From: Candidatus Parcubacteria bacterium
Lineage (GTDB): Bacteria; Patescibacteriota; Minisyncoccia; Minisyncoccales; JAGMDC01
Direction of reading: 5' to 3'
NCBI GenBank assembly: GCA_023131895.1
Contig: JAGLYZ010000004.1
Location: 29,895-93,894 of the forward strand
Length of the DNA stretch: 64,000 nt
Shown: one piece after another, positions 3,213 to 59,786 of the stretch
How the letters are laid out: the number at the start of each line of letters is the position of its first letter
Position numbering within the stretch: the first letter of the stretch is position 1
Position numbers and translations under genes: made by a program
The notes under the pieces: model-generated
Database searches by the model: none
What the model was told of the DNA's origin: nothing
The model's input: only the letters and a program-made list of their open reading frames with translations

Positions 3213-3491
3213 ATGAACCTGAATTTAAACGAAGACAAACAAAAAAGATTAGTGTATTTAATTATAATTCTTATTGTTTTGGTTATAATAGCTTTATTTG
3301 TTTTTAGTAAAAGCTTTTTTGTAAAACAGCCGTCAATCCCTTTAGGTACTAGTTTTGGATTACAAGAAATCAGTATCAATTTTAATATTTTAGAAAATCC
3401 TTTTGTGCAGATGCTTGAACCATTTGAAGAAATTTCTTATCCTTCAGAAGAAATAGAAATAGGCAGAGAAAACCCGTTTATTACATACTAA
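3213..3491 (+). CDS. Small single-pass membrane protein, unknown function
   Basis: ORF with one hydrophobic helix (LVYLIIILIVLVIIALFVF), tightly packed in the pil operon. Confidence 0.35.
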   Translation: MNLNLNEDKQKRLVYLIIILIVLVIIALFVFSKSFFVKQPSIPLGTSFGLQEISINFNILENPFVQMLEPFEEISYPSEEIEIGRENPFITY

Positions 3492-3586
3492 AACATTTTA
3501 ACATTTTAACATTTTAGCATTTAAACATTTCTGATTTCATTTTTTGTTAATATGTTAATATGTTAGTATGTTAATATGTTTAAATG
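3491..3586 (+). repeat. Phased 8-nt repeat array (AACATNNN units, then NNNNATGT units) ending in the pilB start codon
   Basis: Octamers in one register from 3492. ATGs at 3552, 3560, 3568, 3576 and 3584, the last being the pilB start. By-eye alignment shows about 85% identity to the array at 59675-59786. Confidence 0.8.
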
Positions 3587-5311
3587 AGTTTGATAAATCA
3601 GTTAGTAGAAAAAGGTGTCTTAAATAAAAAAGCAGCTGCTTCTTTAAAAAAGGAAATAGAATTATCTGGTAAAAGAGAAGAAGAAATAATTTTACAACAA
3701 GGAATAATTAAGGAAGATGCTTTATTCCAATTAAAAAGCGAGAGTTTGAAGGTTCCTTTAAAAGAAGTTGAGCCATCAGAAGTTCTTTTAGAAGTTTTGA
3801 GATTAATTCCCAGAGATGCTGCTGAGTTTTATCATATGGTTCCTATTAGTAAAAAAGATAGGACATTGGAGATAGGGATGGTTTATCCGGATAATTTAAA
3901 AGCCCAGGAAGCTTTAAAATTTTTAACAAGACGCGAAGGCTATTCTTTCAGAGTTTATCTAATCACTTTATCTAATTTCAGGGAGCTTTTAAAACGATAT
4001 TGGACCCTTAAAAAAGAAGTAAAAAAGGCGCTTACAGAGGTGGAAACAGAAATAGCTGAAGATGAAGTTGAAATTTCTAAGAAAGCGGCTGAATTAGAAA
4101 AGCTGGGAGAAGAGGCTCCTATTTCCAAAATTGTTTCTGTAATTCTAAAACACTCTGTAGACGGGAATGCTTCTGATATCCACATTGAACCAATAAGAGA
4201 ACAGCTGAGAGTAAGGTTTCGTCTTGATGGAATATTGCATTCCTCACTTTTTTTACCTTTAAAAATTCATCCGGCAGTGGTAGCTCGGATTAAGATTTTA
4301 GCAGAGCTAAAAATTGACGAAACTAGGGTTCCTCAAGACGGCAGGATTGGCGCTAAAATTAGCAATAAAGATATTGATTTCAGGGTTTCTACTTTCCCTA
4401 CTATATTGGGCGAGAAAGTAGTGATGAGAGTTCTTGACCCGTCCAAGGGATTAAAAGATTTTAAAAGATTAGGATTAGACGGAAGAAATCTTGAAATTTT
4501 AAACAAAGCAGCTGAAAGACCTTATGGAATGATTTTATCAACTGGGCCTACTGGCTCAGGAAAAAGCACTACATTATATGCTGTTTTACAGATTTTAAAT
4601 AGGGAAGGAGTAAATATTGTTACAATAGAAGATCCAGTGGAGTATTTTATGGAAGGTATTAACCAGTCCCAGACAAAAGAAGAGATTGGCTACGGTTTTG
4701 CTACAGCATTGCGTTCTATTTTAAGGCAGGACCCGGATGTGATTATGGTGGGTGAAATTAGAGATAAAGAGACAGCAGAATTAGCTGTTCATGCTGCTTT
4801 AACCGGGCATATTGTCTTGTCTACCCTTCATACAAATACAGCTGTTGGCGCTATGCCTCGGTTAATTGACTTGGGAATAGAGCCATTTTTACTGCCCCCA
4901 AGCTTAAGCGCAATTTTGGCGCAAAGATTAGTAAGGCGGCTTTGTCCTTTTTGTAAAGAAAAAGTAAAGGCGAATATTAAAGTTAGAGAAAAGATTTTAA
5001 AAGAAATAAATTTTTTGCCAGTTTCTACTAAAGCAGGAATTAAAGTTGATGAACCTATATCTATTTGGCAGGCAAAGGGATGTAAAAAATGCAGGATGCA
5101 GGGATACACTGGAAGGGTTGCTCTTTTTGAAATTTTGGAAATGACTAAAGAGCTTTCAGAAATAGTTTTAAAGGAGCCGTCAGAAAATAATTTCCAAAAA
5201 GAGGCAAAAAGGCAGGGTATGGTTACAATGGCTCAAGACGGCATAATTAAGGTTTTAAATGGAGTTACTTCTATAGAAGAAGTGATTAGGGTTACAAAGG
5301 AAGAAGAATAA
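3584..5311 (+). CDS. pilB: Type IV pilus assembly ATPase PilB (GspE family)
   Basis: Walker A GPTGSGKST, Asp/His boxes, C-terminal tetracysteine (CPFC...CKKC), GSPII_E N-terminal-like domain. Confidence 0.95.
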   Translation: MSLINQLVEKGVLNKKAAASLKKEIELSGKREEEIILQQGIIKEDALFQLKSESLKVPLKEVEPSEVLLEVLRLIPRDAAEFYHMVPISKKDRTLEIGMVYPDNLKAQEALKFLTRREGYSFRVYLITLSNFRELLKRYWTLKKEVKKALTEVETEIAEDEVEISKKAAELEKLGEEAPISKIVSVILKHSVDGNASDIHIEPIREQLRVRFRLDGILHSSLFLPLKIHPAVVARIKILAELKIDETRVPQDGRIGAKISNKDIDFRVSTFPTILGEKVVMRVLDPSKGLKDFKRLGLDGRNLEILNKAAERPYGMILSTGPTGSGKSTTLYAVLQILNREGVNIVTIEDPVEYFMEGINQSQTKEEIGYGFATALRSILRQDPDVIMVGEIRDKETAELAVHAALTGHIVLSTLHTNTAVGAMPRLIDLGIEPFLLPPSLSAILAQRLVRRLCPFCKEKVKANIKVREKILKEINFLPVSTKAGIKVDEPISIWQAKGCKKCRMQGYTGRVALFEILEMTKELSEIVLKEPSENNFQKEAKRQGMVTMAQDGIIKVLNGVTSIEEVIRVTKEEE

Positions 5312-8072: not shown

Positions 8073-8136
8073 TCACCCTGTTAAATCTTTCCGAAAATTT
8101 CGGAAAGAAAATCAAAGATTTTATTTAACAAGGTAA
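8073..8136 (+). repeat. Palindromic element PE copy 2 (intergenic, upstream of pilin gene; right arm degenerate)
   Basis: TCACCCTGTTAAAT ... ATTTAACAAGGTA with hairpins CTTTCCGAAA-AT-TTCGGAAAG and AAAATC-AAA-GATTTT. Confidence 0.8.
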
Positions 8137-8173
8137 AGGTCGAAAAATTAAAAGCTTTTAATTTAAATTTAAT

Positions 8174-9190: not shown

Positions 9191-9210
9191 AATTTTTCAG
9201 CAGAAGATCC

Positions 9211-9229
9211 ACGAAGGTCGGGCCTTCGT
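9211..9229. repeat. REP-like hairpin (left of the RAYT gene)
   Basis: ACGAAGG-TCGGG-CCTTCGT, a 7-bp stem. Confidence 0.75.
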
Positions 9230-9238
9230 TTATCTAAA

Positions 9239-9955
9239 ATGCCAACAAGAAAACACAAATTAGCTAATAATGAGATTTATCATATTATTATTAGAGGAGT
9301 AAATGACTCTGAGATTTTTAAAGATATAAATGATTATTATAGAGCAATTTTTTCCATTTACGAATTTAATACTATTAACTCTGTTGATATCAGACAAAAA
9401 AGAGAGCAACGAGCTCTCACAAAGAAAAACATAAACCAAGGTCGGGCCTTCGTTGATAATAGAGACTTGTTAGTAGAGATATTATGTTTTTGTTTTATGC
9501 CGAATCATGTTCATTTATTGCTCAAGCAGATAAAAGATGATGGAATAACTAAATTTATGAGAAAATTGGGTTCAGGTTATGCAAGTTATTTTAACAAAAA
9601 ATACAGTCGAAAAGGTTATCTTTTTCAAGGAAGATTTTTTCCGGTTCATATTAAAACAGACGAACAATTGCAAGTTATTTTTGCTTATATTCACGTTAAT
9701 TCCATATCTTTGATAGAGCCAAAATGGAAAGAAATTGGAATCCAAGATATAGAAAAAGTCATTAGTTTTTTAGAGGATTATAAATGGTCAAGTTATCCTG
9801 ATTATATTGGCAAGAAGAATTTTCCTTCAGTAACCCATAGAAATTTTATGTTAGAAATGATGAATAAAGAAAAAGGTTGCAAAGATTTTATTGAAAATTG
9901 GATTAGGTACAAAAGCAAGATTAAAAAATTGCCAGATATTGTCTTGAAGAGCTAA
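9239..9955 (+). CDS. REP-associated tyrosine transposase-like protein (IS200/IS605 TnpA Y1 family, RAYT-like)
   Basis: HUH motif in MPNHVHLLL. Tyr-containing AYIHVN motif typical of Y1 transposases. Flanked by REP-like hairpins in opposite orientation. Confidence 0.8.
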   Translation: MPTRKHKLANNEIYHIIIRGVNDSEIFKDINDYYRAIFSIYEFNTINSVDIRQKREQRALTKKNINQGRAFVDNRDLLVEILCFCFMPNHVHLLLKQIKDDGITKFMRKLGSGYASYFNKKYSRKGYLFQGRFFPVHIKTDEQLQVIFAYIHVNSISLIEPKWKEIGIQDIEKVISFLEDYKWSSYPDYIGKKNFPSVTHRNFMLEMMNKEKGCKDFIENWIRYKSKIKKLPDIVLKS

Positions 9956-9979
9956 ACGAAGGCCCGACCTTCGTTTAGC
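9951..9979. repeat. REP-like hairpin (right of the RAYT gene, inverted relative to the left copy)
   Basis: GCTAAACGAAGG-CCCGA-CCTTCGTTTAGC, a 12-bp stem overlapping the RAYT stop codon. Confidence 0.75.
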
Positions 9980-10928: not shown

Positions 10929-11498
10929 ATGTTAAAATGTTATAATGTTAAAATGAATAAGGCAATGACCTTGATTGAAGTTTTGGTTGTTATTGCCATA
11001 ATGCTTATTCTTATGGCAGTAGCAGTATTTGTAAATCCCAGGCCTTCAGTAGAGCTTGATAACGCTGCTCGGCAATTGGTAAGCGACCTCCGCCGCGCCC
11101 AAAACATGGCAATGTCAGCTTCAACTCAAATAGATGGATGGGGTAATGAGATTGTTCCTTGCGGCTATGGAATTTATACTCCAAATACACAGAAATATGT
11201 TATATTTTATAACGAGACAGATTGTTCAAAATTTCAGCACTGGGGAGGACCCAATCCGCCCTGGCAGGGTAGTATAGATTTTGAAACAGTGGATTTTACA
11301 GATGTAGCTCCGGGCATTACAATAACTCAAGGAGTTTCTTTAAGCATTTATTTTATTCCTCCAAGTGGAACTACTTATATTAATGGAGATTATCCACTTA
11401 TTCCTCCTCCACCTTTGCCTTACTTTGAACTTACAGCTTCCGACGGCTCTATTAGAACTGTCACTGTCACTTCAGCCGGGAAGATTGAAATACAGTAA
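10929..11498 (+). CDS. Minor pilin, GspH/FimT-like (start probably ATG 10953)
   Basis: MNKA-MTLIEVLVVIAIM prepilin-type N-terminus. First of four consecutive pilin-like genes. The upstream part of the ORF lies in the 8-nt ATG ladder. Confidence 0.7.
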   Translation: MLKCYNVKMNKAMTLIEVLVVIAIMLILMAVAVFVNPRPSVELDNAARQLVSDLRRAQNMAMSASTQIDGWGNEIVPCGYGIYTPNTQKYVIFYNETDCSKFQHWGGPNPPWQGSIDFETVDFTDVAPGITITQGVSLSIYFIPPSGTTYINGDYPLIPPPPLPYFELTASDGSIRTVTVTSAGKIEIQ

Positions 11499-11536
11499 AT
11501 CATGTTAACATATTAACATACTAATATCTTAATAAT

Positions 11537-11569
11537 ATGCTTAAATGTTTAAATGCTAAAAAGTTAAAA
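11537..11569 (+). repeat. 33-nt direct repeat, left copy (duplicate of the 5' end of the gene at 12232)
   Basis: ATGCTTAAATGTTTAAATGCTAAAAAGTTAAAA versus ATGTTTAAATGTTTAAATGCTAAAAAGTTAAAA at 12232-12264 (one mismatch). Confidence 0.8.
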
Positions 11570-12208: not shown

Positions 12209-12231
12209 AAATTTAAAAAATAACTGTTTGT

Positions 12232-12879
12232 ATGTTTAAATGTTTAAATGCTAAAAAGTTAAAATGTGAGGGTTTCAGTTTGCTTGAGGTTTTGGTTGCC
12301 ATTACAGTGCTTATTGTTGGCTTGGTTGGTGCCATAGGTTTGATTGTTTATAATGTTTCTATCAGCAGGGCAAGCCCGGAGAAAATTATCGCTGTTAATT
12401 TAGCGCAGGAGGGAATAGAAGTGGTGAGAAACATCCGTGACAGCAACTGGCTGGCAGGTGTGGTTTGGGATCAAGATATTCCTTCTGGCAATTCTATTCC
12501 TATTTTTACAGATAATAATAGAAATGATTGGCCTTCTGACCCAGATAAATGGAGACTTAGTCATATAGGGGCTGCGGAAAGCTGGAAAGAAGATGTTTAC
12601 TATGATGATATTGATAAATTTTATGGCCAGTCAAAAAAGCAAAGCACTAACCCTGCTCAATTTCCAGACGATTGGATTTCAACAATTTTCACTCGTAAGA
12701 TCACTATTACTGAGTTTTTTGTTATTGATGAGAATCCACGTAAGTTCGCTTTTATTAAGATTGTTATGGCTAAGTTTTGGCCAGACCAAGTAAAAGTAAT
12801 TTCCCAAGTTGATTGGACTGACCGCAGCGGGAATTCTCATACCATCATTCTTGAAAACCATTTGTATAATTGGAGATAG
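12232..12879 (+). CDS. Minor pilin, PilV-like
   Basis: ...KLKCEG followed by FSLLEVLVAITVLIVGL. The only in-frame ATG (12232) is the first rung of the 8-nt ATG ladder. Confidence 0.65.
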   Translation: MFKCLNAKKLKCEGFSLLEVLVAITVLIVGLVGAIGLIVYNVSISRASPEKIIAVNLAQEGIEVVRNIRDSNWLAGVVWDQDIPSGNSIPIFTDNNRNDWPSDPDKWRLSHIGAAESWKEDVYYDDIDKFYGQSKKQSTNPAQFPDDWISTIFTRKITITEFFVIDENPRKFAFIKIVMAKFWPDQVKVISQVDWTDRSGNSHTIILENHLYNWR

Positions 12880-18413: not shown

Positions 18414-20948
18414 ATGAGTAATAATTCAGAAAAAGAAAAACCAAAAGAAAAAACAGCTGAAATTGGTTATATAAAGCCCAGAGAAATTACTGAAGAAATG
18501 AAGGAATCATATATTGATTATGCTATGTCAGTAATTGTTGCCAGGGCTTTGCCTGATGTTAGAGACGGTTTAAAGCCGGTTCATCGCCGGATTTTGTATG
18601 CAATGTTTGAAGATGGCCTGAAGCATGATGCTAAATTTAGAAAATCAGCTACCGTAGTGGGTTCAGTTTTGGGTCGTTACCATCCTCATGGCGATACTGC
18701 TGTCTATGATTCTTTAGTGCGAATGGCACAGGATTTTTCTTTGAGATATCCTTTGATTAAAGGTCAAGGAAATTTTGGATCAATCGATGGCGATCCAGCG
18801 AGCGCCATGAGATATTCAGAGGCGAAACTTTCCAAAATTGGTGAGGAAACATTAAAAGATATCACTAGAGAGACAGTGGATTTTAGGGATAATTATGACG
18901 GGACCAGGAAAGAACCGACTGTCTTGCCCTCGCCAATGCCCCAGCTTTTATTAAATGGTTCTTTAGGAATCGCAGTTGGCATGATGACTAATATCCCTCC
19001 TCATAATTTGTCAGAAGTGGCAAATGGAGCTATTCATTTAATTGATAATCCAAAGGCAACGACAGAAGACCTTTTTGAATTTATTAAAGGGCCTGATTTT
19101 CCTACTGGCGGCATCATCTATAATAGAAAAGAAATTATCAGCGCTTATTGCCAAGGCAATGGTCCTATAGTAATAAGGGGAAAAACAGAAACATCTGAAG
19201 ATAAAAAAGGCAGGAACAGGATTTTAATTACAGAAATCCCATATCAAGTTCAAAAATCATCTTTGGTAGAACAGTTTGCCAAGCTTGTTCAAGAAAAAAA
19301 AATCACTGGTATTAGAGATATTAGAGACGAATCAGACAGGGAAGGTATGAGAATTGTTATTGAACTTCAGCGCGATGCTTTCCCGCAAAAAATCTTGAAT
19401 CGGCTTTATAAATTTTCCGATCTTCAAAAAACATTTCATCTTAATATGCTTGCTTTGGTAGATGGTATCCAGCCAAAGGTTTTATCACTTTTAGAGGTCT
19501 TAAACTACTTTATAATTCATAGAAAAGAAGTAGTAATCAGAAGAACCAAATATGATTTGCGCAAAGCAGAAGAAAGAGCGCATATTTTGGAAGGCTTGCA
19601 TAAATGTCTGTCAAAGATTGATGAAGTGATTAAGACAATTAAAGCATCGGCTAACCGGGAAGATGCGCTGAAGAATTTAATGAAAAAATTCAAGCTTACT
19701 GAAATTCAGGCAAACGCTATTTTAGAGACAAAGCTTTCTGCCTTAGCAAAGCTGGAAAGAAAGAAAATTGAGGAAGAATTGGCAGAAAAGAAAAGGCTAA
19801 TAAAAGAATTAGAAGCTATTTTAAAAAGCCCGCAAAAAATTAAAGAAGTCATTAAAAAAGAGCTTAGAGAAATTATTGAAAACTTCGGCGATGAAAGAAG
19901 AACCAAGCTTGTTGTCCAGAAAGTCGGCGAAATTGCTGAAGAGGATTTAATTCCGCAGGAAGAAACGATTATTACTTTAACCCAAGGCGGGTATATAAAA
20001 AGAGTGAATCCTAATGTTTATAAGATCCAAAAGAGAGGGGGCAAGGGCATTATGGGGATGAAAACTTTAGGAGAAGATATTGTAGAACATTTCCTTTTTT
20101 GCCAAACCCATGACGAACTTCTTTTCTTTACTGATTCAGGAAAGGTTTTTAAAATTCCTGCTTATGAAGTTCCTGAAGGAACAAGGGTTGCTAAAGGCAG
20201 AGGAATTTTGAATTTTTTAGAGCTTACTCCTCAAGATAAGATATTATCTATTCTTCATTTTAAAAAAAAGGGAGACCAAGAAGATGAAATGAAGTATTTA
20301 GTAATGGCAACGAAAAATGGTATGATAAAGAAAACAGATTTAAGCGAATTTGAAAATGTAAGAAGGTCAGGCTTAATTGCTATTAATCTTAAAAAAGGTG
20401 ATTCGCTTAGAAGTGTAAATAGAACCTCTGGCCATGATGAAATAGCCTTTGTGACCAAAAAAGGACAGTCAATTAGGTTTAAAGAAGATAATGTGCGACC
20501 TATGGGCAGGACAGCTGCTGGGGTGACTGGAATAAGATTAAAGGGGGACGATGAGTTGATTGGAATGGACGTTATTCACCCTGTTAAATTGTCCCGAAAG
20601 TTTTCGGGACACCTCGCAAAGCGAGGATTTAACAGGGTAAAAATTCAAAACTATCTTTTAGTTGTAAGCGAGAACGGATATGGAAAAAGAACTGATTTAA
20701 AAGAATACAGATTACAGACAAGGGGCGGTTCTGGAATAAAGACAGCCAATATTACTGAAAAGACAGGAGATTTGGTTGCCTCTAAGGTTCTTTCTGGAGA
20801 GGAGGAAGATTTAATCGTTATTTCTCGAAAAGGCCAGATTATCAGAACTCCTGTTAATTCTATTTCTATAATCAGCAGGTCAACGCAAGGCGTAAGAATA
20901 ATGCGCTTGGACAAAGGAGATAAGGTGGCATCAGGCGCTTGTATATAA
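18414..20948 (+). CDS. gyrA: DNA gyrase subunit A
   Basis: [16 protein letters not shown], catalytic Tyr context AMRYSEAKL, GyrA-box-like region and C-terminal beta-pinwheel repeats. Confidence 0.97.
20576..20640 (+). repeat. Palindromic element PE copy 3 (in-frame inside the gyrA C-terminal domain)
   Basis: TCACCCTGTTAAAT-GTCCCGAAA-GT-TTTCGGGAC-A-CCTCGC-AAA-GCGAGG-ATTTAACAGGGTAA. Translated as [22 protein letters not shown]. Confidence 0.85.
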
Positions 20949-20966
20949 AATATTTGCTCGGCAATA

Positions 20967-21097
20967 AAGTTTCAAAGTACCGAACCTCAAAATCCCAGCG
21001 AGATTTTGGGTTCTGCGTTCTCGCCTCGCCATTCCGACTCGGTCGGAAACCGTGCTGGCGAGGCTCCGAAAGCTACTTTGAAACCTTATCGCCTCGC
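20967..21097. ncRNA. Candidate structured RNA / cis-regulatory leader (unknown class; strand undetermined)
   Basis: GC-rich island between gyrA and a methyltransferase gene. Closing helix 20967-20979/21074-21087, hairpin 20982-21013, and nested helix 21023-21031/21056-21064 containing hairpin 21032-21048. Confidence 0.4.
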
Positions 21098-21140
21098 TTA
21101 TATTATTAGTATATTCGTAAGCATTCGTAATTCGTAGATT

Positions 21141-21653
21141 ATGAGTTTTCTTAATCCAGAACAAATTATAAAAAATCTTAGATTGCGCAAGGATATGATT
21201 GCCGCGGATTTTGGATGCGGTTCTGGTTCCTGGGTATTGCCTTTAGCTGAAAAACTAGAGGATGGCAAGGTTTATGCCATAGATATATTAGAAGAGCCGT
21301 TATCTGCTCTTCAGAGTAAGGCGAAAGCCAAGAATTTAGATAATATTGAAACAGTTTTAGCTGATATAGAAAAAAACTCTAAACTTGAAGATGGGATTGC
21401 TGATTTGGTTTTGATCACAGACCTTTTATTTGAAGTTGATGATGTTATGGCGGTTTTAGAAGAAGGGAAAAGAGTTCTTAAGAAAGGAGGAAGAATTTTA
21501 GTGGTGGACTGGAAAAAAGATGTTGCTTTAGGTCCAGAACAAGGTCGGGTTTTACCAAGCGAAATTAAAAAAATCGCCAAGGATTTAGGACTGAAATTGG
21601 AGAGGGAATTTGACGCCGGAATTTACCATTTTGCTTTACTATTTGAAAAATAA
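21141..21653 (+). CDS. Class I SAM-dependent methyltransferase
   Basis: Motif I DFGCGSG, acidic motif II YAIDI, motif IV-like LVLITDLL, post-I region. Confidence 0.8.
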   Translation: MSFLNPEQIIKNLRLRKDMIAADFGCGSGSWVLPLAEKLEDGKVYAIDILEEPLSALQSKAKAKNLDNIETVLADIEKNSKLEDGIADLVLITDLLFEVDDVMAVLEEGKRVLKKGGRILVVDWKKDVALGPEQGRVLPSEIKKIAKDLGLKLEREFDAGIYHFALLFEK

Positions 21654-21670
21654 TATAATATTGCTATAAT

Positions 21671-22000
21671 ATGAAAATGAGAAAGTTTCTATTTATGTTA
21701 TCAGTAGGATTAGTTCTTTTTGCGCCAGTAGTGATTCAAGGTATAGAAATAGAAAATCCTTTAGACTGCGCTACTATTGACTGTGTGATTGCTTCTATCG
21801 CTGGTTTTATTTTTATGCTTGCTATAGCGATTGCGCCAATAATGTTTATAATTGCCGGCTTTGCCTTTATCACTGCGGCTGGTGATCCAGTTAAGATTCA
21901 AAAAGCTAAAGATATTGTCCTATGGACAGTTATAGGACTAGCCATTGTTTTAATGGCTTATGGAATAATTAATGTAATTCAGGAGATTTTTATAGAATAA
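21671..22000 (+). CDS. Small secreted two-TM protein, TrbC/VirB2- or T4SS-pilin-like
   Basis: Signal peptide, then two hydrophobic helices around IIAGFAFITAAGDPVKIQKAKD, resembling T4SS pilin families (from memory, not searched). Confidence 0.55.
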   Translation: MKMRKFLFMLSVGLVLFAPVVIQGIEIENPLDCATIDCVIASIAGFIFMLAIAIAPIMFIIAGFAFITAAGDPVKIQKAKDIVLWTVIGLAIVLMAYGIINVIQEIFIE

Positions 22001-22013
22001 TTTTAGCCAATTT

Positions 22014-23084
22014 ATGAAAAAAATATTTATATTAGCGATTATTTTTGTTTTTTTGTTTATTTTTGCAGTATTAATAGAAGCTAAGGATTGTGATTGGAAT
22101 ACTCCTACTTGTGGGGGATGGGCCGGATGTGAAGAAACTAATATTCAAAGCGGGTGTTCAGAGATAGCAGATTGTAGTGTTGGAGAAGGTTTTGGCGGCT
22201 GGGCTTGGCCGAAATGTGATTGTAATCTTAAAACAGAAGGTGAAAGTGATTGTTGGTGCGAGTGTAATGAACAATGCGCAGATGATTGGTGTAAAGGTTT
22301 TGGTAGCGCTAAGGGAATATGCAAAAATGGAATAGGAATTTGTTGTGATGCCACAGAAACAAATTGCGAGATTGATTCAGATGATGAAGATTGTGACGGC
22401 AAATTAAATTGTAACGATAAAGAAGATTGTGAAGGTGAGATTTGTGATACAAATAAAGTATGCAAGAATGGAGCTTGTGTTGAGAGAAAACCAGCTTGTG
22501 GTGTTGATTGCCAGCAGATAACTCAAACTTGTCTTTGCGGCAGTAAAGAAATAAAAGTAGAAAGCGGAGAGTTTTGTTGTATTGCTTTAAGTAAAAAGTA
22601 TGCTTTAAAAACAGATTGCGAGGAACAATGTGAGCCGGTTTGTCCAGAAGATTGTGATAATTTAGCTCCTGCGCCTTGTTATTGCGGTTCAAAATTAATT
22701 GAAGCTGATGAGGAGAAGTATTGTTATAACAACAAAACTTATGCTGATCAAGAAAAGTGTAAAGAAGCTGAGGCAGCGCCGCCAGGACCGCCTCCAGTGG
22801 TAGAACCAGAATGTCCTCCAGGCTCAATTTGCATTGATAATCCTATAACATCAACTAGTTTTGAAGATTTAGTTAATTCTATTGTTAATTTTATTTTTAT
22901 GCTTGCCATAGCGATTGCTCCGATAATGTTTATTATTGCTGGATTTGCTTTTATCACTGCGGCTGGGGACCCAGCAAAAGTCCAGAAAGCAAAAGATATT
23001 GCTTTATGGACAGCAATAGGTTTAATGGTTGTTTTAATGGCTTATGGAATAATCAATGTTATTAAAGAAATTTTCAGCGGATAA
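22014..23084 (+). CDS. Cysteine-rich ectodomain fused to a T4SS-pilin-like C-terminal module
   Basis: Signal peptide, about 250 aa with about 38 Cys, Pro-rich linker APPGPPPVVEPECPPGS, then 62 aa nearly identical to the C-terminus of the 21671 product. Confidence 0.55.
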   Translation: MKKIFILAIIFVFLFIFAVLIEAKDCDWNTPTCGGWAGCEETNIQSGCSEIADCSVGEGFGGWAWPKCDCNLKTEGESDCWCECNEQCADDWCKGFGSAKGICKNGIGICCDATETNCEIDSDDEDCDGKLNCNDKEDCEGEICDTNKVCKNGACVERKPACGVDCQQITQTCLCGSKEIKVESGEFCCIALSKKYALKTDCEEQCEPVCPEDCDNLAPAPCYCGSKLIEADEEKYCYNNKTYADQEKCKEAEAAPPGPPPVVEPECPPGSICIDNPITSTSFEDLVNSIVNFIFMLAIAIAPIMFIIAGFAFITAAGDPAKVQKAKDIALWTAIGLMVVLMAYGIINVIKEIFSG

Positions 23085-25011: not shown

Positions 25012-26211
25012 TTAATTTATTCTAAGATTAGCATTAACTTTAATATTTTTCCAATTTTGAGTTTCTTTTTTATGGAAATAAGCAGTTATGCCTATCATCG
25101 CAGCATTGTCAGTGCAGAATTTTTTTGTGGGAGCTAAAAAAACAAATTGGCTGCCAGTCATTGATAATTTCTTTTTAAATTGTTTTTGCAGTTCTTCATT
25201 AGCAGAAACGCCTCCGCCAAGAATAATTGTTCTTACTTTATAATCCTTTGCTGCTTTTATGGTTTTTTTAATTAAAATATCAATTACTGCTTGTTGTATT
25301 TCCTTGCACATTGCTTGAATATATTTTTCTTTTTTTACCCTGTTAAATAAAATCTCTGATTTTCTTTTGCTGGAAGCAAAAGATTTAACAGGGTGAACCG
25401 CATATAAAACAGCGGTTTTTAATCCAGAAAAACTAAAATCATAATCCTTGCTATACATCATCGGTCTAGGTAATTTTACCCTGTTAAATAAAATCTCTGA
25501 TTTTCTTTTGCTGGAAGCAAAAGATTTAACAGGGTGAATTTTAGATTTCCATTGCCGAGCTTGTTCCGCGATGGCTGGACCGCCAGGGTAACTAAGCCCT
25601 AAAATCCGAGCTGTTTTGTCAAAACATTCCCCTGCAGCATCATCTCTTGTTTCTCCGAGAATTTTGTATTTTCCAATATCTTTCATTAAAATCAATTGTG
25701 TATGCCCGCCGCTTACAACTAGGCATATCGCAGGAAATATTTTTTTTGGATTTTGGATTTTGGATTTCTCGCCAATTTGTAGGAGCAAATTGGCGAGAAT
25801 ATGTGCCTCAATATGGTTAACTGGTATAATTTTTAAATTCCATAAACGAGCTAAAGATTTAGCGAAGTTCACACCTGTCCATAAACAAGGTTCCAGGCCA
25901 GGGCCAGTAGTCACAGCAATCAAATCAATTTTCGGTTTTATAAAGTTTTTTATTCCTGCTTTTTTCAAAGCTTTTTTCAACACTGGTAAAAGATTTTTCT
26001 GGTGTTCTCTTTTTGCCATTGCCGGGTACACTCCTCCATATTTTTTGTGAATTTCTATCTGTGATGAAACAAAATTAGAGAGAATTTCTACCCTGTTAAA
26101 TAATTTCGCTTTTGGCGAAATTCCCCGATTTATCGGGGATTTAACAGGGTGAATTTTTAAAATACTAATACAAGTATCATCACAAGATGTTTCAATTGCT
26201 AAGATAATCAT
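25012..26211 (-). CDS. tsaD: tRNA N6-adenosine threonylcarbamoyltransferase TsaD, interrupted in-frame by three palindromic elements
   Basis: IETSCDDT, YGGVYP, HIEAH, VSGGHTQL, DDAAGECFDKTARILGL, PRPM, DFSFSGLKT, GGGVSAN, FCTDNAAMI. Confidence 0.93.
   Translation of the reverse strand: MIILAIETSCDDTCISILKIHPVKSPINRGISPKAKLFNRVEILSNFVSSQIEIHKKYGGVYPAMAKREHQKNLLPVLKKALKKAGIKNFIKPKIDLIAVTTGPGLEPCLWTGVNFAKSLARLWNLKIIPVNHIEAHILANLLLQIGEKSKIQNPKKIFPAICLVVSGGHTQLILMKDIGKYKILGETRDDAAGECFDKTARILGLSYPGGPAIAEQARQWKSKIHPVKSFASSKRKSEILFNRVKLPRPMMYSKDYDFSFSGLKTAVLYAVHPVKSFASSKRKSEILFNRVKKEKYIQAMCKEIQQAVIDILIKKTIKAAKDYKVRTIILGGGVSANEELQKQFKKKLSMTGSQFVFLAPTKKFCTDNAAMIGITAYFHKKETQNWKNIKVNANLRIN
25333..25397 (-). 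repeat. Palindromic element PE copy 4 (in-frame in tsaD)
   Basis: Identical over 65 nt to copy 5. Hairpins AAAATC-TCT-GATTTT and CTTTTGC-TGGAA-GCAAAAG. Read as HPVKSFASSKRKSEILFNRV. Confidence 0.9.
25474..25538 (-). repeat. Palindromic element PE copy 5 (in-frame in tsaD)
   Basis: Identical over 65 nt to copy 4, located 141 nt away. Confidence 0.9.
26088..26153 (-). repeat. Palindromic element PE copy 6 (in-frame in tsaD)
   Basis: Same arms. Hairpins ATTTCGC-TTTTG-GCGAAAT and TCCCCGA-TTTA-TCGGGGA. Read as HPVKSPINRGISPKAKLFNRV. Confidence 0.9.
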
Positions 26212-32855: not shown

Positions 32856-33277
32856 AAAATACGCTTCGGGGTCGTTGCACTTGATTTTCTTCCGCTATCG
32901 CTACATAACACAAGTATATCTGGCTCGCTCCTGCCGTTGCTCGACCCATATTTGCCTCCATAGATTGAAATGATAATATGGAATGGAGGCAAACATCAGA
33001 TATGCTGATACATTATATATCATAAAGTTTTGATAATTGAGAGAATAGCAAAAAGGTTTTCTTTTACCTTTTAAAAGGTAAAAGAAATGGTGCGCGAAGC
33101 ATGTCGTTAGTTTCGTTCAAAATAAGTTCGGATTTAATTAAACAACCATACCAAAAAATCGCCTTATGGCGATTTTTTTAGTGCACTATATTAAAGATAG
33201 TTAGAACATTTTTCGCTCGCTTCGCTGATGCCTCGGCGAAGCGGGCCGTCTGCGGCGGCGATGAAGCCCCCAAAAAT

Positions 33278-33303
33278 TCAGAGCGGCTTCGCCGCGTTCT
33301 TTA
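33278..33303. repeat. 26-bp inverted repeat, left copy
   Basis: TCAGAGCGGCTTCGCCGCGTTCTTTA is the exact reverse complement of 34137-34162. Contains hairpin GCGGC-TTC-GCCGC. Confidence 0.85.
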
Positions 33304-34136: not shown

Positions 34137-34162
34137 TAAAGAACGCGGCGAAGCCGCTCTGA
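34137..34162. repeat. 26-bp inverted repeat, right copy
   Basis: TAAAGAACGCGGCGAAGCCGCTCTGA. Lies 11 nt from the 3' end of tRNA-Leu(GAG). Confidence 0.85.
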
Positions 34163-34173
34163 CTTTTTCTCGG

Positions 34174-34262
34174 TGGTGCGGACGAAGGGACTCGAACCCT
34201 TATGGAGAAAAATCTCCCAGGAGCCTCAGTCCTGTGCGTCTAGCCAATTGCGCCACGTCCGC
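34174..34262 (-). tRNA. tRNA-Leu (anticodon GAG), CCA encoded
   Basis: Acceptor GCGGACG/CGTCCGC, anticodon stem CAGGA/TCCTG with loop CTGAGGC, variable-arm stem GGAGA/TCTCC, T-arm AAGGG-TTCGAGT-CCCTT, 3' ACCA. Confidence 0.9.
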
Positions 34263-47226: not shown

Positions 47227-47323
47227 CTGTTTAGTACTACTTTGTTATGGATTTTATTCTTGATAAAAACGGCTATAGATCTGGCTGTTTTTTTGTAGAA
47301 ATCGGGTTTTTGTGATAGAATAA

Positions 47324-47403
47324 AACATATAAACATACTAACATATAAACATACTAACATATAAACGAATGCTTAAATGTTAAAATGTTTGAATGTTTAG
47401 ATG
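47324..47403 (+). repeat. Phased 8-nt repeat array (5 x AACATNNN then 5 x NNNNNATG) ending in the ftsK start codon
   Basis: Ten octamers in a single register. ATGs at 47369, 47377, 47385, 47393 and 47401, the last being the ftsK start. Confidence 0.85.
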
Positions 47404-49620
47404 ATATTGGTGGCTAAGAAAAAGAAAAACAAGAAGAATAAAAAAAATATAACCAGAAAAAAAGAGAGAAAACCTCTTTTTCACCTTGATTTGTTAGAAG
47501 ACACAAAGAGAAAAATTTATGGCGTCTTAATGTTTTTAGGCGCAATTATTATTTCTCTTTCTTTTTTTAACTTATTTGGCAGAGCTGGCCAGATTTTTAT
47601 GGATTTTTCTGACTCGTTGATTGGAAAGGCGCTTTTTATTCTGCCTTTGCTTTTTATTTTAGGAGGAGTAGTTTTCTTTAGCCAGAAATATGAGCCAGAA
47701 ATAAAAAAGAATAAATTAGCTATATTTTTTGGAATTATTGTTTTGGTCTTAGGCGTATCTGGAATTTTAGGCATTACAAGCATAGATGAAGAAATAAAGC
47801 AGGGCGGATGGCTTGGTTATTTAATATCTTTTCCTTTAATCAAGGCATTTGGGACTTTGGGCGCTAGTATTGTGTTTATAACAGTAATTATTATCGGCGG
47901 CTTAATTCTTTGGCAGATTAGCCCAAAGCCGTTGAAAAAAGAAGAACCCGCCTTTGCTAAAGCTCCGGCGGGCAAGGAAAAGCCTTCATTCGCGCCCACC
48001 TTTGCTAAAGCTACGGTGAGTGAAAAAGAAAAACCGATAATTAGCGATATTTTAAAGAAAAAAGAAATTAAACTTGAATCTGCGATAGAGAAAGAAAAAG
48101 AGGAGACATCGTCCATTTTTAAATTAAAAACAAAACCGCTTACTATTTTTTCAGGAGAGGACTATCAGCCGTTGCCATTGGATTTGCTGGCAAAAGATCA
48201 GGGCTCTCCTACTTCTGGAGATACTAAAATAAATGCAGCTATAATTCAGAGAACTCTTCAAAATTTTGATATTCCAGTAGAAATGGCGGAAGTAAATATT
48301 GGACCAACAGTTACACAGTATACTTTTAAGCCCGCAGAAGGAGTAAAACTCTCAAAAATTACTTCTTTGAATAATGATTTATCATTAGCTTTAGCCGCTC
48401 ATCCTATTAGGATTGAAGCCCCTGTTCCTGGCAGGTCATTAGTAGGAGTTGAAATACCTAACAAAGGCAGAGCCAGGGTTGGCTTAAGAAACCTATTAGA
48501 GCAGCCGGAATTCCAGAATTCTCCTTCTAAACTTACTTTTCCTTTAGGAAGAGATGTAGCCGGCAATCCTGTTTTTGGCGATTTAAGCAAAATGCCGCAT
48601 CTTTTAGTGGCTGGAAGCACTGGCAGTGGGAAAACCATTTGTCTTAATAATATTATTGCAAGCTTGCTTTATAGAAATTCTTCAGAGAGTTTAAGATTTA
48701 TTTTAGTTGATCCCAAAAGAGTAGAATTTTCTATTTACAATGGTTTGCCGCATTTACTGTCTTCAGTGATCCTAACCCCGCAGAAAACAATCAATGTTTT
48801 AAAATGGTTGATTACAGAAATGGAAAGAAGATTTGACGTGCTATCTGAAGCCAAGACAAAAAATATAGCCGGCTATAATGAGATTGCAGCTGGAACTCAG
48901 AAAATAAATGGAGAAGCATTAGAGCCATTGCCTTATATTGTTTTGATTATTGATGAATTAGCTGATGTTATGGCTGCTCGCGGCAGAGAGGTTGAGGCAG
49001 GTATTGTCCGCTTGGCGCAGATGTCTCGCGCAGTAGGAATTCATTTAATTCTAGCTACTCAAAGGCCTTCAGTAGAAGTAATTACAGGACTTATCAAAGC
49101 AAATATTACAAGCAGAATCGCTTTTCAGGTTGCTTCTCAGATTGATTCTCGAACTATTTTAGATATGGCTGGCGCAGAAAAGCTTTTAGGTTTGGGAGAT
49201 ATGCTGTTTATTTCTGCAGAAGTTGCGAAACCGAAAAGAATCCAATGCGCTTATGTTTCAGAAAAAGAGATGAAGAATGTAACTAATTGGCTGAAAAAAT
49301 CAGAAGTTCCGTCAAAAGAAATTTCAGAGGAAAAAGAAAAAATAGATAAAGAAATCTCAAATTCAGTCAGTTCCATAGAAGAAGCATTGGAAAAAGAAGA
49401 GAGTTTTTATGATGAAGATCCGCTTTACGAGGAAGCGAAAAGAATCATCATTGAATCAAAAAAAGCGTCTGCTTCTCTGCTGCAAAGAAGATTGCGGCTT
49501 GGATATGCCCGGGCTGCCCGTTTGATAGATACATTAGAGGAAAGAGGAATAGTTGGTCCGTCAGACGGAGCAAAACCAAGAGAAGTTTATATTATTGAAG
49601 AAAACGAAGAAAAGATATAG
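47401..49620 (+). CDS. ftsK: DNA translocase FtsK/SpoIIIE
   Basis: N-terminal TM helices, low-complexity linker, motor domain with Walker A GSTGSGKT, Walker B IVLIIDELAD, C-terminal gamma winged-helix (LLQRRLRLGYARAARLID). Confidence 0.93.
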   Translation: MILVAKKKKNKKNKKNITRKKERKPLFHLDLLEDTKRKIYGVLMFLGAIIISLSFFNLFGRAGQIFMDFSDSLIGKALFILPLLFILGGVVFFSQKYEPEIKKNKLAIFFGIIVLVLGVSGILGITSIDEEIKQGGWLGYLISFPLIKAFGTLGASIVFITVIIIGGLILWQISPKPLKKEEPAFAKAPAGKEKPSFAPTFAKATVSEKEKPIISDILKKKEIKLESAIEKEKEETSSIFKLKTKPLTIFSGEDYQPLPLDLLAKDQGSPTSGDTKINAAIIQRTLQNFDIPVEMAEVNIGPTVTQYTFKPAEGVKLSKITSLNNDLSLALAAHPIRIEAPVPGRSLVGVEIPNKGRARVGLRNLLEQPEFQNSPSKLTFPLGRDVAGNPVFGDLSKMPHLLVAGSTGSGKTICLNNIIASLLYRNSSESLRFILVDPKRVEFSIYNGLPHLLSSVILTPQKTINVLKWLITEMERRFDVLSEAKTKNIAGYNEIAAGTQKINGEALEPLPYIVLIIDELADVMAARGREVEAGIVRLAQMSRAVGIHLILATQRPSVEVITGLIKANITSRIAFQVASQIDSRTILDMAGAEKLLGLGDMLFISAEVAKPKRIQCAYVSEKEMKNVTNWLKKSEVPSKEISEEKEKIDKEISNSVSSIEEALEKEESFYDEDPLYEEAKRIIIESKKASASLLQRRLRLGYARAARLIDTLEERGIVGPSDGAKPREVYIIEENEEKI

Positions 49621-54415: not shown

Positions 54416-55042
54416 TTATTCTTCTTTCAAAAAATCTAAATTTTTTGGCATTTTCTTTAAAGGTTTTTCAAAGCGCAGTTTTGGGACTTTTTTATAGTTT
54501 TTGTTTTTTATCCAGCCGGTTTTAGTATAAAAATAACCGGCGCCTCCCATTTTTCCTAATTCATCATAAATATTTTTATTTTTTATAGAAACCCAATTCG
54601 CGATTTTCAACTCTTTTTTTAATGGGTTGATAGTTATGGCAGCATATTTTGGCGGAAAAATTACGCATTCTCCTTTTTTTGCTTCAACAACAACAATGTC
54701 TTCAATAATCTTTCCTTTTGTTTTTTGCATTAAAAAAATTGCTTTTCCATCAAGTACAATATATAACTCTTGGAAATTTTTTGAGTTCATATTGCCTTTA
54801 GTCCTTACAAACTCTTTGCCCAGCATTCTTGCAGGAATAATCGTAATATCATATCTTAACCCTGTTAAATGCCGCTTTGCGGCACCCCGCCTTTTATGTA
54901 AAGGCTGGGTATTTAACAGGGTAAATTCTCCTTTATGTTTTATACCGCGATGCATATAATAAAGCTCAAGATTTGGTGCTGTTTTTACCCATTTCTGGTC
55001 ATAAAGAACTTTTTTCATGTCATTTAAATATCTTATTTCCAT
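54416..55042 (-). CDS. Cupin-type glucose-6-phosphate isomerase-like protein (metal ligands substituted), with in-frame palindromic element
   Basis: LGKEFVRTKGNMNSKNFQELYIVLDGKAIFLMQ and VIFPPKYAAITIN align by eye with the archaeal cupin PGI blocks GKEFFFTKGHFH...EVY and PPYWAHRTVN. Confidence 0.65.
   Translation of the reverse strand: MEIRYLNDMKKVLYDQKWVKTAPNLELYYMHRGIKHKGEFTLLNTQPLHKRRGAAKRHLTGLRYDITIIPARMLGKEFVRTKGNMNSKNFQELYIVLDGKAIFLMQKTKGKIIEDIVVVEAKKGECVIFPPKYAAITINPLKKELKIANWVSIKNKNIYDELGKMGGAGYFYTKTGWIKNKNYKKVPKLRFEKPLKKMPKNLDFLKEE
54857..54925. repeat. Palindromic element PE copy 7 (in-frame in the cupin gene, in a different reading frame of the arms)
   Basis: AACCCTGTTAAAT-GCCGC-TTT-GCGGC-A-CCCGCCTTT-TATGT-AAAGGCTGGG-T-ATTTAACAGGGTAAA. 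Read on the minus strand as TLLNTQPLHKRRGAAKRHLTGL. Confidence 0.85.
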
Positions 55043-57712: not shown

Positions 57713-59119
57713 CTATTCAAGATAATTCTTTTCAAACCACCAGGTTAGGATTTTTTGGACATCATCTTTGAGGTCGTCGGATTTTAAAAGAACAATTATA
57801 ATATTGTGCGAAGTGTTGTCTGGCAATGGCAATTCAAATATAAATATGCCGGTATATTTTGATTCTATAATAAATCCGGTTTTGCCGCCTAAAAAGTCCT
57901 TGCTTTCCGGAAAAATATTTTTGTTATGCAAATCTTCAAAATGAACTGTTCCAAAATCCTCTATTGTTTCTCCTTTGCTGATTTTCAAAAGAGGAGGCCT
58001 GGTATTGAAAATATATTGGCTCAAATAGAAAAGATCTTGTGCAGTAGAAACGTTTTTTTCGCTTAAGCCGCTCGGGTCGTCGTAAAAAGTATTTTTCATG
58101 CCAATCATTTTTGTTTTTTCATTCATTAATCTTATTGTTTTTTCTCTTCCTGAAAAGCGGGTTAAAATTTCAGCAGCGTCATTAGATGATTGAGTTAAAA
58201 GAGGATGAAGGAGTTCAACTAAATTGTATTTTTTTCCAGCTTCTAATCCTGGCGTAGAGCCATATGCTTTTAACATTTCTTTTGTAACCCAGATTGATTT
58301 TCTTAAATCATTATTCTCAATAGCAGCTATGGCAGTCATTAGTTTAGTTAAAGAAGCTATGGGCATTATTTTTTCAGGATTTTTTTCAGCCAAAATATAA
58401 TAATTATCAAGGTCGGCAATTAAATAAGATTCAGCAGATATTTCAGAAATAACGAAGGTCGGGCCTTCGTTGGCTAACGAAGGCCCGACCTTCGTTAGCT
58501 TGTCAATTATTAAAACAGGCATTTCTATCTCTGCAGCATTATAAATGTATTCTGCATCTTCATTAGAGAATCTAACACAACCGCCAGTATAATTGAATTC
58601 AGTTGATTGGCCATTGGAATAATACGGTTCTCCGTGAATATAGTATTTACCGTAAAAATTAATGCTCCATGGCATATAAACATGAGCAATATTGGAAAAA
58701 GCAGTTTTGTGTCCGGAAATCACTTTATAAAGACCCGAAGGAACTCCTCCCCAAAATTCAGGATCTCCTTTGGCTAAAATAGGAAGTTCTTTTTCTAATG
58801 CGCCATTTTTATAAATTTGAGCTTTCATTTCTGAAAGATTAATTTCTAAAAAATCTGTTTTTTTAGAAATAAATTCCTGCCTTTTTTCAAAACCAAAATC
58901 TTTTAATTGTTTTAGTTTTATTTCTTTTTGCTTGAGTCCTTGAAGCGTATCAGCGCTGAGAATAGTCTGATTACTTTTAGTCTCTACAAAAATTTCATTG
59001 CCAGGCATTATAAAAATTAAAAAAGCAAAAAGCCCGATTAAAAGGGCTAAAAAAATAATAGATATGCAGTTTTTTTTCAGTTTAGAACTAATCATCAGTT
59101 TATCCCGCACCTTTTTCAA
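57713..59119 (-). CDS. Fusion of an L,D-transpeptidase (YkuD) domain and a D-alanyl-D-alanine carboxypeptidase (peptidase S11) domain
   Basis: YkuD catalytic block YIHGEP...TGGCVRF. S11 SxxK motif PIASLTKLMT plus SSND (SxN). REP pair in-frame between the domains. Confidence 0.8.
   Translation of the reverse strand: MKKVRDKLMISSKLKKNCISIIFLALLIGLFAFLIFIMPGNEIFVETKSNQTILSADTLQGLKQKEIKLKQLKDFGFEKRQEFISKKTDFLEINLSEMKAQIYKNGALEKELPILAKGDPEFWGGVPSGLYKVISGHKTAFSNIAHVYMPWSINFYGKYYIHGEPYYSNGQSTEFNYTGGCVRFSNEDAEYIYNAAEIEMPVLIIDKLTKVGPSLANEGPTFVISEISAESYLIADLDNYYILAEKNPEKIMPIASLTKLMTAIAAIENNDLRKSIWVTKEMLKAYGSTPGLEAGKKYNLVELLHPLLTQSSNDAAEILTRFSGREKTIRLMNEKTKMIGMKNTFYDDPSGLSEKNVSTAQDLFYLSQYIFNTRPPLLKISKGETIEDFGTVHFEDLHNKNIFPESKDFLGGKTGFIIESKYTGIFIFELPLPDNTSHNIIIVLLKSDDLKDDVQKILTWWFEKNYLE
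58451..58497. repeat. Inverted pair of REP-like hairpins inside a CDS
   Basis: AACGAAGG-TCGGG-CCTTCGTT GGC TAACGAAGG-CCCGA-CCTTCGTTA. Translated (minus strand) within KLTKVGPSLANEGPTFVI. Confidence 0.85.
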
Positions 59120-59594: not shown

Positions 59595-59674
59595 ATTATA
59601 TTAGAATATCACAATAATTATTTTCTGGCAATGTTGACAAAAATTTTGTTTTGTTTAAGATAGAGAAGTGATTA

Positions 59675-59786
59675 CAACATCTTAACATTTTAACATTCAA
59701 ACATCTTAACATTTCTGATTTTATCTTTTGTTAATATGTTAGCATGTTAGTATGCTTAAATGTTATTATGTTAAAATGATTTTATG
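59675..59786 (+). repeat. Phased 8-nt repeat array ending in the groES start codon (homologous to 3491-3586)
   Basis: AACATNNN x5, conserved core TTCTGATTTTATCTTTTG, then ATGs at 59736, 59744, 59752, 59760, 59768, 59776 and 59784, the last being the groES start. Confidence 0.85.

Follow-up and report, generated by a model that had tools for sequence, protein, structure and literature searches.

The spacer between gyrA and a class I S-adenosylmethionine (SAM)-dependent methyltransferase (MTase) gene in a 64-kb stretch of a Candidatus Parcubacteria genome is a real, evolutionarily conserved structured non-coding element that lies outside the catalogued RNA families. This whole stretch is called the window below, and coordinates are its positions unless a related locus or contig used for comparison (L003, L102, L134 and so on) is named. 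The element occupies positions 20956–21097 (142 nt) and is one of eight known copies, the other seven of which (six intact and one decayed) were found on contigs of Parcubacteria/Minisyncoccota. The family members are non-coding, are about 145–160 nt long and belong to genomes of the candidate phyla radiation (CPR). Because the element stands between different gene pairs and close relatives lack it at the corresponding sites, it looks mobile and does not look like a riboswitch of the MTase gene. The explanation that we prefer, and hold tentatively, is that it belongs to a new family of structured elements that are present in few copies, are mobile or were acquired recently, and are co-transcribed with the operons of their hosts.

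The gyrA gene (18414–20948, 844 aa) and the MTase gene (21141–21653) are separated by 192 nt, in which the GC content rises to 0.48–0.56 vs 0.34 on average in the window; that the spacer is GC-rich was noticed in a first-pass annotation made from the letters alone. The spacer folds with −66.5 kcal/mol (z −6.3) on the plus strand and with −79.0 kcal/mol (z −8.0) on the minus strand, and the 142-nt element with −61.2 kcal/mol (z −7.2); in each of these cases none of 200 shuffled sequences folded equally well. All helices proposed in that annotation are present. The architecture consists of a closing stem of about 20–24 bp (P1), a tight three-way junction and two arms (P2 and P3), and the P3 arm is built, in this order, of P3a, an internal loop UC/UNC, P3b, a 7-nt bulge ACCNUGC and a variable tip.

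In the plus-strand minimum free energy fold of the window copy, the 5' strand of P1, GCTCGGCAATAAAGTTTCAAAGTA (20956–20979), carries the semi-conserved terminal motif YTCGG and a 2×2 TC/TC internal loop and pairs with the 3' strand, TACTTTGAAACCTTATCGCCTCGC (21074–21097), which ends in the motif CCTCRY. The closing helix of about 24 bp is thus longer than first described, and the previously reported pairing AAGTTTCAAAGTA/TACTTTGAAAC (20967–20979 with 21074–21084) is its inner part. Because of this extension, the third GCCTCGC (21091–21097), for which a competing, switch-like helix had been suggested, turns out to be the 3' base of P1 and not a free competitor; the corresponding site reads GCUUUGC, GCCUCAC, CCCUCGU, GCUCCAU or CACUUCG in other members, where the alternative pairing is not conserved. 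The junction CC (20980–20981; CC in four members of the alignments, UC, C or AC elsewhere) leads to the P2 hairpin GAACC(T)CAAAATC-CCAGCGA-GATTTTGGGTTC (20982–21013), with a 5-bp stem, a bulged T at 20987, a 7-bp stem and the conserved 7-nt loop CCAGCGA (20995–21001). The segment 21014–21022 contains the junction T, the 5' strand of P3a, GCgTTC (21015–21020), and the internal-loop TC (21021–21022), while 21065–21073 contains the internal-loop TCC and the opposite strand GAAaGC (21068–21073), so that P3a is a helix additional to those described earlier. P3b, GCCTCGCCA/TGGCGAGGC (21023–21031 with 21056–21064), encloses the variable hairpin P3c, TTCCGAC-TCG-GTCGGAA (21032–21048), and the conserved 7-nt bulge ACCGTGC (21049–21055). 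An A/T-rich 3' tail, TTATATTATTAG (21098–21109), brings the copy to 20956–21109; it corresponds to TTTATATTTTTAG in L104, an independent insertion, and to TTTATATATTTTATG in L003, and a U-rich tail follows P1 in four of the eight copies.

Searches of 82 loci with the spacer by nhmmer and blastn returned the source contig only, and homologues were therefore sought by a structure-aware pattern. In L003, the closest relative (GyrA C-terminal domain 89% identical), a GC-rich spacer with short blocks in common with the window is found at the same place, and two of these blocks gave the pattern CTCGCCTCGC-N25-40-GGCTNCGNAAGCT, which was run on 241 million metagenome records. It returned 29 metagenome stretches, of which 25 were chance matches in GC-rich contigs and four, on contigs with 34–42% GC (L102, L103, L104 and L118), were clear homologues. 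A covariance model built from five sequences added three more copies, namely a second one in L102 (L102:2044–2192, 75 bits, here L102-2), one at L134:700–847 (55 bits, found with the model's filters off) and that of L003 (56 bits). The copies in L102-2 and L134 are divergent; the latter folds independently into the same architecture. The copy in L003 is decayed, and its P3 is no longer able to pair. The two copies in L102 are diverged from each other and lie 1.4 kb apart. The search for relatives recommended at the outset has thus yielded seven further copies. Of the possibility raised there, that the region might be a decayed mobile-element fragment, the mobility is indicated by the data; the element itself is intact and structure-constrained.

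The pairing is supported by covariation. RNAalifold applied to a MAFFT alignment of five sequences, not fitted to the model, gave 53 pairs, with 92.8% of cells paired and compensatory double changes in 26 of the pairs; the controls gave 10.6 ± 2.3 such pairs in shuffles and 4–6 in slid alignments. In the eight-sequence alignment, which was fitted to the model and so leans toward the structure, 46 of the 53 pairs show compensatory double changes and 93.1% of cells are paired, a result reached by none of 500 shuffles, and slid controls gave 7–14. Such changes were found in this alignment in 20 of 21 pairs of P1 (helices 1 and 2), in 11 of 12 pairs of P2 and in all six pairs of P3c. P3a and P3b seemed not to vary among the first five members, in part an effect of the search pattern, which prescribed these bases; the two members found with the covariance model alone show that both helices do covary. 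UCC/GGA and AA/UU replace the P3a pairs in the divergent L102-2 and L134, and P3b is swapped for GUCCUGCCA/UGGCAGGAC in the former and for GGUAAAUU/AAUUUGCC in the latter.

While the stems vary, the unpaired motifs are fixed in the seven intact members, two single-base variants aside. The core CCAGCG of the P2 loop is present in seven of eight copies, the decayed one included, and one member has CCAACGA. The bulge ACCNU(G/A)C is kept in all seven intact members (ACCAAGC in the decayed L003), and the internal loop UC/U(C/G)C is constant in them. A bulged pyrimidine in P2 was found in six copies, and the termini YUCGG...CCUCRY are semi-conserved; the junction strands (CC, U and zero nt) consist of poorly conserved nucleotides. 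The hosts are deeply diverged, with HolB proteins of L104 and L129 being only 41% identical, yet the loops are conserved. A contact between the P2 loop and the bulge (GCG with UGC) was considered and rejected, as it is broken in L118 and in the first L102 copy (L102-1) with no compensating change.

The eight copies are situated at seven junctions, each in the sense orientation of the flanking genes: gyrA|MTase (window and L003), rpsI|PD-(D/E)XK nuclease, khpA|trmD (L102), rpmG|terminator (L102-2), mreB|holB (L104), class II aminoacyl-tRNA synthetase|serS and rnc|unknown ORF (L134). Three of these loci provide filled and empty sites. At gyrA|MTase, the sequence in L083, L089 and L093 is TAAAA(A)TTATG, in which the spacer is entirely absent, and the GyrA C-terminal domains of these relatives are 83–86% identical. 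At mreB|holB, a Staskawiczbacteria relative with MreB 95% identical reads TAAAATG, and the spacer in L104 is about 160 nt long. At khpA|trmD, the spacer has 76–79 nt in four relatives vs 263 nt in L102, where the extra DNA directly follows a conserved terminator hairpin. A more distant carrier, L129, has a tight mreB|holB junction, and its copy sits after rpsI instead. Parsimony favours one insertion in each lineage over numerous exact losses. The sense orientation between a stop codon and the next co-directional start codon argues that the element is transcribed within the host operon; sense transcription is likewise implied for L102-2, since this copy lies between the rpmG stop codon and a separate canonical terminator, that is, inside the 3' untranslated region.

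None of the 4227 families of Rfam 15 accounts for the element. At the gathering threshold, tRNAs are the only matches in the window, and no credible match at the element was found on either strand when four members were scanned with E ≤ 10; the low-score matches in or near it (E 0.17–8) belong to unrelated families and are scattered and mutually inconsistent. Covariance models and ARAGORN gave no signal recognition particle (SRP)/4.5S, 6S, RNase P, transfer-messenger (tm), 5S or transfer RNA at the element, and tRNAs were detected elsewhere only, in agreement with the first-pass annotation, which could not match the fold to SRP, 6S, RNase P, tmRNA or common riboswitch cores. Comparisons by eye with SRP helix 8, the 6S central bubble, 5S loops and the K-turn were rejected, as was the thiamine pyrophosphate aptamer, with which only 'CCAGCG' and 'ACC..CUGG' are in common. 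A coding function was also rejected, because no reading frame is kept among the members and their length differences are not divisible by three; the 77-aa minus-strand open reading frame (ORF), earlier dismissed as lacking coding features, has no Pfam match, and its profile gave only two spurious matches (E > 1) against 5.8 billion proteins.

According to the explanation that we prefer, the element would insert into the gap of a few bases that separates a stop codon from the start codon of the following co-directional gene, and the sense RNA would fold during transcription. The long P1 duplex may then insulate or process the two cistrons as an RNase III-type substrate, by analogy with rRNA intervening sequences and Correia/ERIC elements, while the invariant unpaired nucleotides may present a recognition surface for a trans-acting factor needed for persistence or spread. 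In this connection, the copy at L134:700–847 lies directly after the RNase III gene rnc (L134:12–701), which may be a coincidence, and P1 is a plausible RNase III substrate. In this explanation the element is no ligand sensor of the methyltransferase gene.

Several points weigh against this explanation. The roles proposed for P1 and for the unpaired nucleotides are pure inference. No transposase, integrase or reverse transcriptase stands next to any copy in the flanks examined (up to 20 kb), and the three filled/empty pairs show no consistent duplication of the target site but at most a 2–3-bp AT/ATT repeat, which is not significant in AT-rich DNA. Copies are scarce: the 64-kb window has a single one, even when the filters are switched off, L129 has one in 20 kb, and none was found in some 180 kb of other CPR loci. 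Variable stems combined with invariant loops are the pattern expected of an RNA gene beneficial to the host. Substitutions in the yeast mitochondrial cluster GC42 concentrate in loops and leave stems conserved (PMC4478555, PMC2800124), unlike the present element, in which loops are invariant and stems turn over by compensatory change. The sense strand, finally, is not favoured by the pairs themselves: the seven intact copies contain 335 Watson–Crick pairs, 6 G·U pairs on the plus strand and 8 A·C pairs equivalent to G·U on the minus strand. These wobble counts lack strand bias, and the strand is not identified by the pair statistics. The minus strand folds better by 5–14 kcal/mol in five of five members tested, results that are not independent because the difference stems largely from conserved loop sequences. 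On the sense strand, C makes up 40% of the unpaired core positions, an unusual share for a functional RNA. On the other side of the balance, as indirect evidence for the sense strand, are the orientation at seven of seven junctions and the location of L102-2 inside a 3' untranslated region.

That the element is an independent gene for a trans-acting small RNA of a new class, with a housekeeping or an accessory role, is in our opinion rather unlikely; the RNA would be cut from operon transcripts via P1 and bound by a conserved protein. Transfer RNAs or 6S/4.5S-type RNAs embedded in operons are likewise processed out of transcripts, and covarying stems with fixed loops and bulges in such distant hosts, low copy number and the position of some copies amid stable-RNA and ribosomal genes (for example the cluster of tRNA-Tyr, tRNA-Thr, rpmG and rpsI) would suit a gene of this kind. 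Against it are the empty orthologous junctions in near relatives at three loci, the decay of the copy in the closest relative, L003, and two diverged paralogues on one contig; no promoter or terminator of its own is conserved among the members, and the strict core pattern gave only four true copies in 241 million metagenome records. It is unlikely, too, that the family constitutes a CPR-specific functional RNA class whose core is active itself, by self-cleavage or ligation or by recruitment of a host enzyme, and spreads between operon junctions. If true, the family would be no passive palindrome but a mobile element acting at the RNA level, or else a ribozyme or ribonucleoprotein of a new class.

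A role of the folded single strand at the DNA level is possible because of the near-even wobble counts, the better minus-strand fold and the C-rich unpaired core. Formulated as a substrate of a trans-acting recombinase or transposase, similar to attC sites or IS200/IS605 ends, with an orientation that reflects the direction of replication and not that of transcription, this idea appears quite doubtful. The pairs are nearly all Watson–Crick, extrahelical bases (the bulged U/C in P2 and the 7-nt bulge) are conserved, and presence/absence polymorphism occurs at tight junctions with an orientation that is consistent relative to co-directional genes at all seven of them. The likeness to integron attC sites includes structure conserved over sequence, extrahelical bases, a variable and sometimes branched tip, location directly after an ORF and fixed orientation. 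However, the attC core sites R'' (RYYYAAC) and R' (GTTRRRY) are absent by inspection from the ends of the window copy and of other members inspected, and flanks up to 20 kb contain no integrase or cassette array; the neighbours are core housekeeping genes, whose position is unchanged where the element is missing. P2 and P3 are dissimilar, whereas the left- and right-end hairpins of IS200/IS605-type elements, including palindrome-associated transposable elements and repetitive extragenic palindromes, are alike. The left flanks differ (AAAAT, AAAAT, ATAAC, CAAGA, TTATT and TAGCA) and have no target tetranucleotide in common, and neither a Y1 or REP-associated tyrosine transposase nor an integrase was seen in the flanks examined. 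Scans of IMG/VR with two degenerate patterns and BLAST searches of phage and plasmid collections gave no match.

A new class of self-cleaving ribozyme cutting polycistronic transcripts between cistrons is very unlikely. Bacterial self-cleaving ribozymes such as hammerhead, twister, pistol and hatchet typically have variable gene contexts and occasional tandem or paralogous copies, and the family resembles them in variable context with occasional paralogous copies, in conserved internal-loop and bulge nucleotides around a three-way junction and in sense orientation within operons. The four members scanned do not match the Rfam models of hammerhead, twister, twister-sister, pistol, hatchet or HDV-like ribozymes even at E ≤ 10, the hammerhead core CUGANGA...GAAA is absent by inspection from the junction, and conservation of the nucleotides in the junction itself is poor. 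An elaborate intrinsic terminator or mRNA-stabilising hairpin of gyrA with no family-specific function is most improbable. A long stem followed by the U-rich tail noted above and the occurrence of unrelated AT-rich palindromes at the same junction in other relatives would agree with it, but such a device would not preserve, in genomes so deeply diverged, a branched core with unchanging loops and bulges, the terminator scan of the plus strand of the window spacer found none, and L102-2 has its own separate canonical terminator downstream.

A riboswitch-like or attenuator leader of the MTase–pilin operon, suggested by the position directly upstream of the MTase gene and by three GCCTCGC motifs with an alternative helix possible in the window copy, is hardly tenable and already contradicted by the data, since the downstream genes are unrelated (SAM-MTase, PD-(D/E)XK nuclease, trmD, holB, serS, an unknown ORF and, in L102-2, only a terminator), orthologous MTase genes lack the element, no alternative helix and no plus-strand terminator provide a conserved expression platform, and no riboswitch model matches. 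The initial description as a non-coding RNA or riboswitch-like leader therefore holds as to a structured, conserved non-coding element and fails as to a leader or switch.

In the surroundings of the window copy, the gene order gyrA, MTase, pilin, pilin, HSP20 is kept in relatives, the nearest genomes are labelled Minisyncoccales and Candidatus Nealsonbacteria (CPR/Patescibacteria, now Minisyncoccota), and the gyrA–MTase region occurs also in run SRR13892599. A second copy in the window was found neither by the pattern, repeat and blastn-short searches nor by the covariance model with filters off, which gave generic hairpins of up to 23 bits only. A promoter-like sequence TTGAAA-17-TATTAT (21078–21106, plus strand; 10 of 12 matches in a consensus scan) overlaps the 3' strand of P1 and the tail; it may be incidental, and its spacing varies in other members by inspection. 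Three ATTCGTA repeats (21113–21136, plus strand) are located outside the element, upstream of the MTase start, and similar CACGAAT/ATTCGTG repeats, direct and inverted, are found at the same place in L004 (3745–3810). Repeats of this type may be an operator or promoter motif of the MTase–pilin operon. AT-rich palindromes fill the gyrA|MTase junction in L092 (1350–1500) and L004 (3733–3826), where the window has the GC-rich element. In L083, L086 and L093, relatives that lack the element, the gyrA genes carry an intein (Intein_splicing domain) and encode products of 1309 aa (L083 and L086) and at least 937 aa (L093, truncated by the contig end); the window gyrA is without it.

The contig L102 contains further structured DNA. 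After the complete rpmG (L33) ORF, on the minus strand at L102:2190–2310, a hairpin-rich stretch is followed by a partial L33 C-terminus (...GKWCKKHTAHKEAKR*), which directly precedes the second element copy and resembles a displaced original 3' end of the gene. Between tRNA-Tyr(GTA) and tRNA-Thr(GGT), also on the minus strand, a 217-nt segment (L102:2573–2789; −91.9 kcal/mol, z −8.4, no Rfam match) has the closing stem GCCCCCACACCAAUCC/GGAUUGGUGUGGGGGU around a branched core. It may represent a second family of the same kind, with a long stem and a branched GC-rich core.

Other repeats were noticed in the window. Long AT-rich palindromes at 3473–3596, 11496–11569, 12223–12267, 47321–47404 and 59665–59780, to which those at the gyrA|MTase junction of L092 and L004 are analogous, consist of 8-nt tandem repeats (AACATTTT)n followed by inverted (ATGTTAAT)n. 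The GC-rich hairpin ACGAAGGTCGGGCCTTCGTT is repeated in both orientations at 9199–9233, 9423–9457, 9944–9978 and 58440–58499, with two adjoining inverted copies at 58451–58499. A motif TT(T/C)ACCCTGTTAAAT stands beside small hairpins at 2557–2618, 8104–8148, 25323–25538, 26085–26122 and 54856–54884, and this set includes a perfect 65-nt direct repeat (25333–25397 and 25474–25538). A 32-nt inverted repeat with 97% complementarity (33272–33303 and 34137–34168) contains the GC hairpin GCGGCTTCGCCGC, brackets 833 nt and adjoins a tRNA at 34177–34262. Two adjacent pilin-like genes have C-terminal T4SS_pilin domains that coincide with a 252-nt direct repeat of 77% identity (21749–22000 and 22833–23084).

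Genomes of CPR/Patescibacteria are tiny and gene-dense, and to our knowledge almost nothing is known about their non-coding RNAs. The element must be one of two things: a functional RNA of a new class, or a structure-constrained selfish element of a new type living in highly reduced genomes. With a covariance model, eight examples and three filled/empty site pairs now defined, questions on the gain and loss of intergenic DNA, on the punctuation of operon transcripts and on possible RNA–protein or ribozyme activity in this lineage have become testable.

The known systems resembling the element differ from it in definite features. Correia elements of Neisseria, enterobacterial ERIC/IRU and Rickettsia palindromic elements are small palindromic intergenic elements co-transcribed with operons, and the Correia stem is an RNase III substrate. 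The present element is similar to them in its length of about 100–150 nt, long terminal inverted repeat or stem, position between or beside genes, sporadic occurrence and co-transcription. Those elements are high-copy, with conserved terminal repeats and, in Correia, duplication of TA, whereas this one is low-copy, has a covarying closing stem and conserved internal loops and shows no evident target-site duplication. With these palindromes, which resemble miniature inverted-repeat transposable elements, it has presence/absence polymorphism in common, observed at the three loci, but not sequence-conserved terminal inverted repeats, since 20 of 21 P1 pairs covary. Intervening sequences of bacterial 23S/16S rRNA are excised by RNase III and are tolerated since the transcript is processed at the stem; they too have a long closing stem around a variable interior and are sporadic among strains, but their sites are rRNA helices instead of the gaps between protein-coding genes, and a conserved branched core is lacking.

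Mitochondrial GC clusters, double-hairpin elements and repetitive hairpin-forming elements (PMC4478555, PMC2800124) offer another comparison. Like the mitochondrial clusters, the element is a GC-rich hairpin insert in AT-rich compact genomes, sporadic and subject to insertion or deletion between close relatives, with structural constraint and no encoded transposase; GC42 is 42 nt long and high-copy, compared with about 150 nt and low copy number here. Orphan structured non-coding RNA motifs have also been found as GC-rich intergenic regions in AT-rich bacterial genomes by the GC-IGR/DIMPL approach (PMC6429828, PMC8632094, PMC11109978). The present element has no matching family in Rfam 15 and, unlike most of these motifs, shows insertion polymorphism between close relatives. 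It agrees with them in being a GC-rich spacer in an AT-rich genome, in its covariation, in its variable gene contexts and in having no assignable function.

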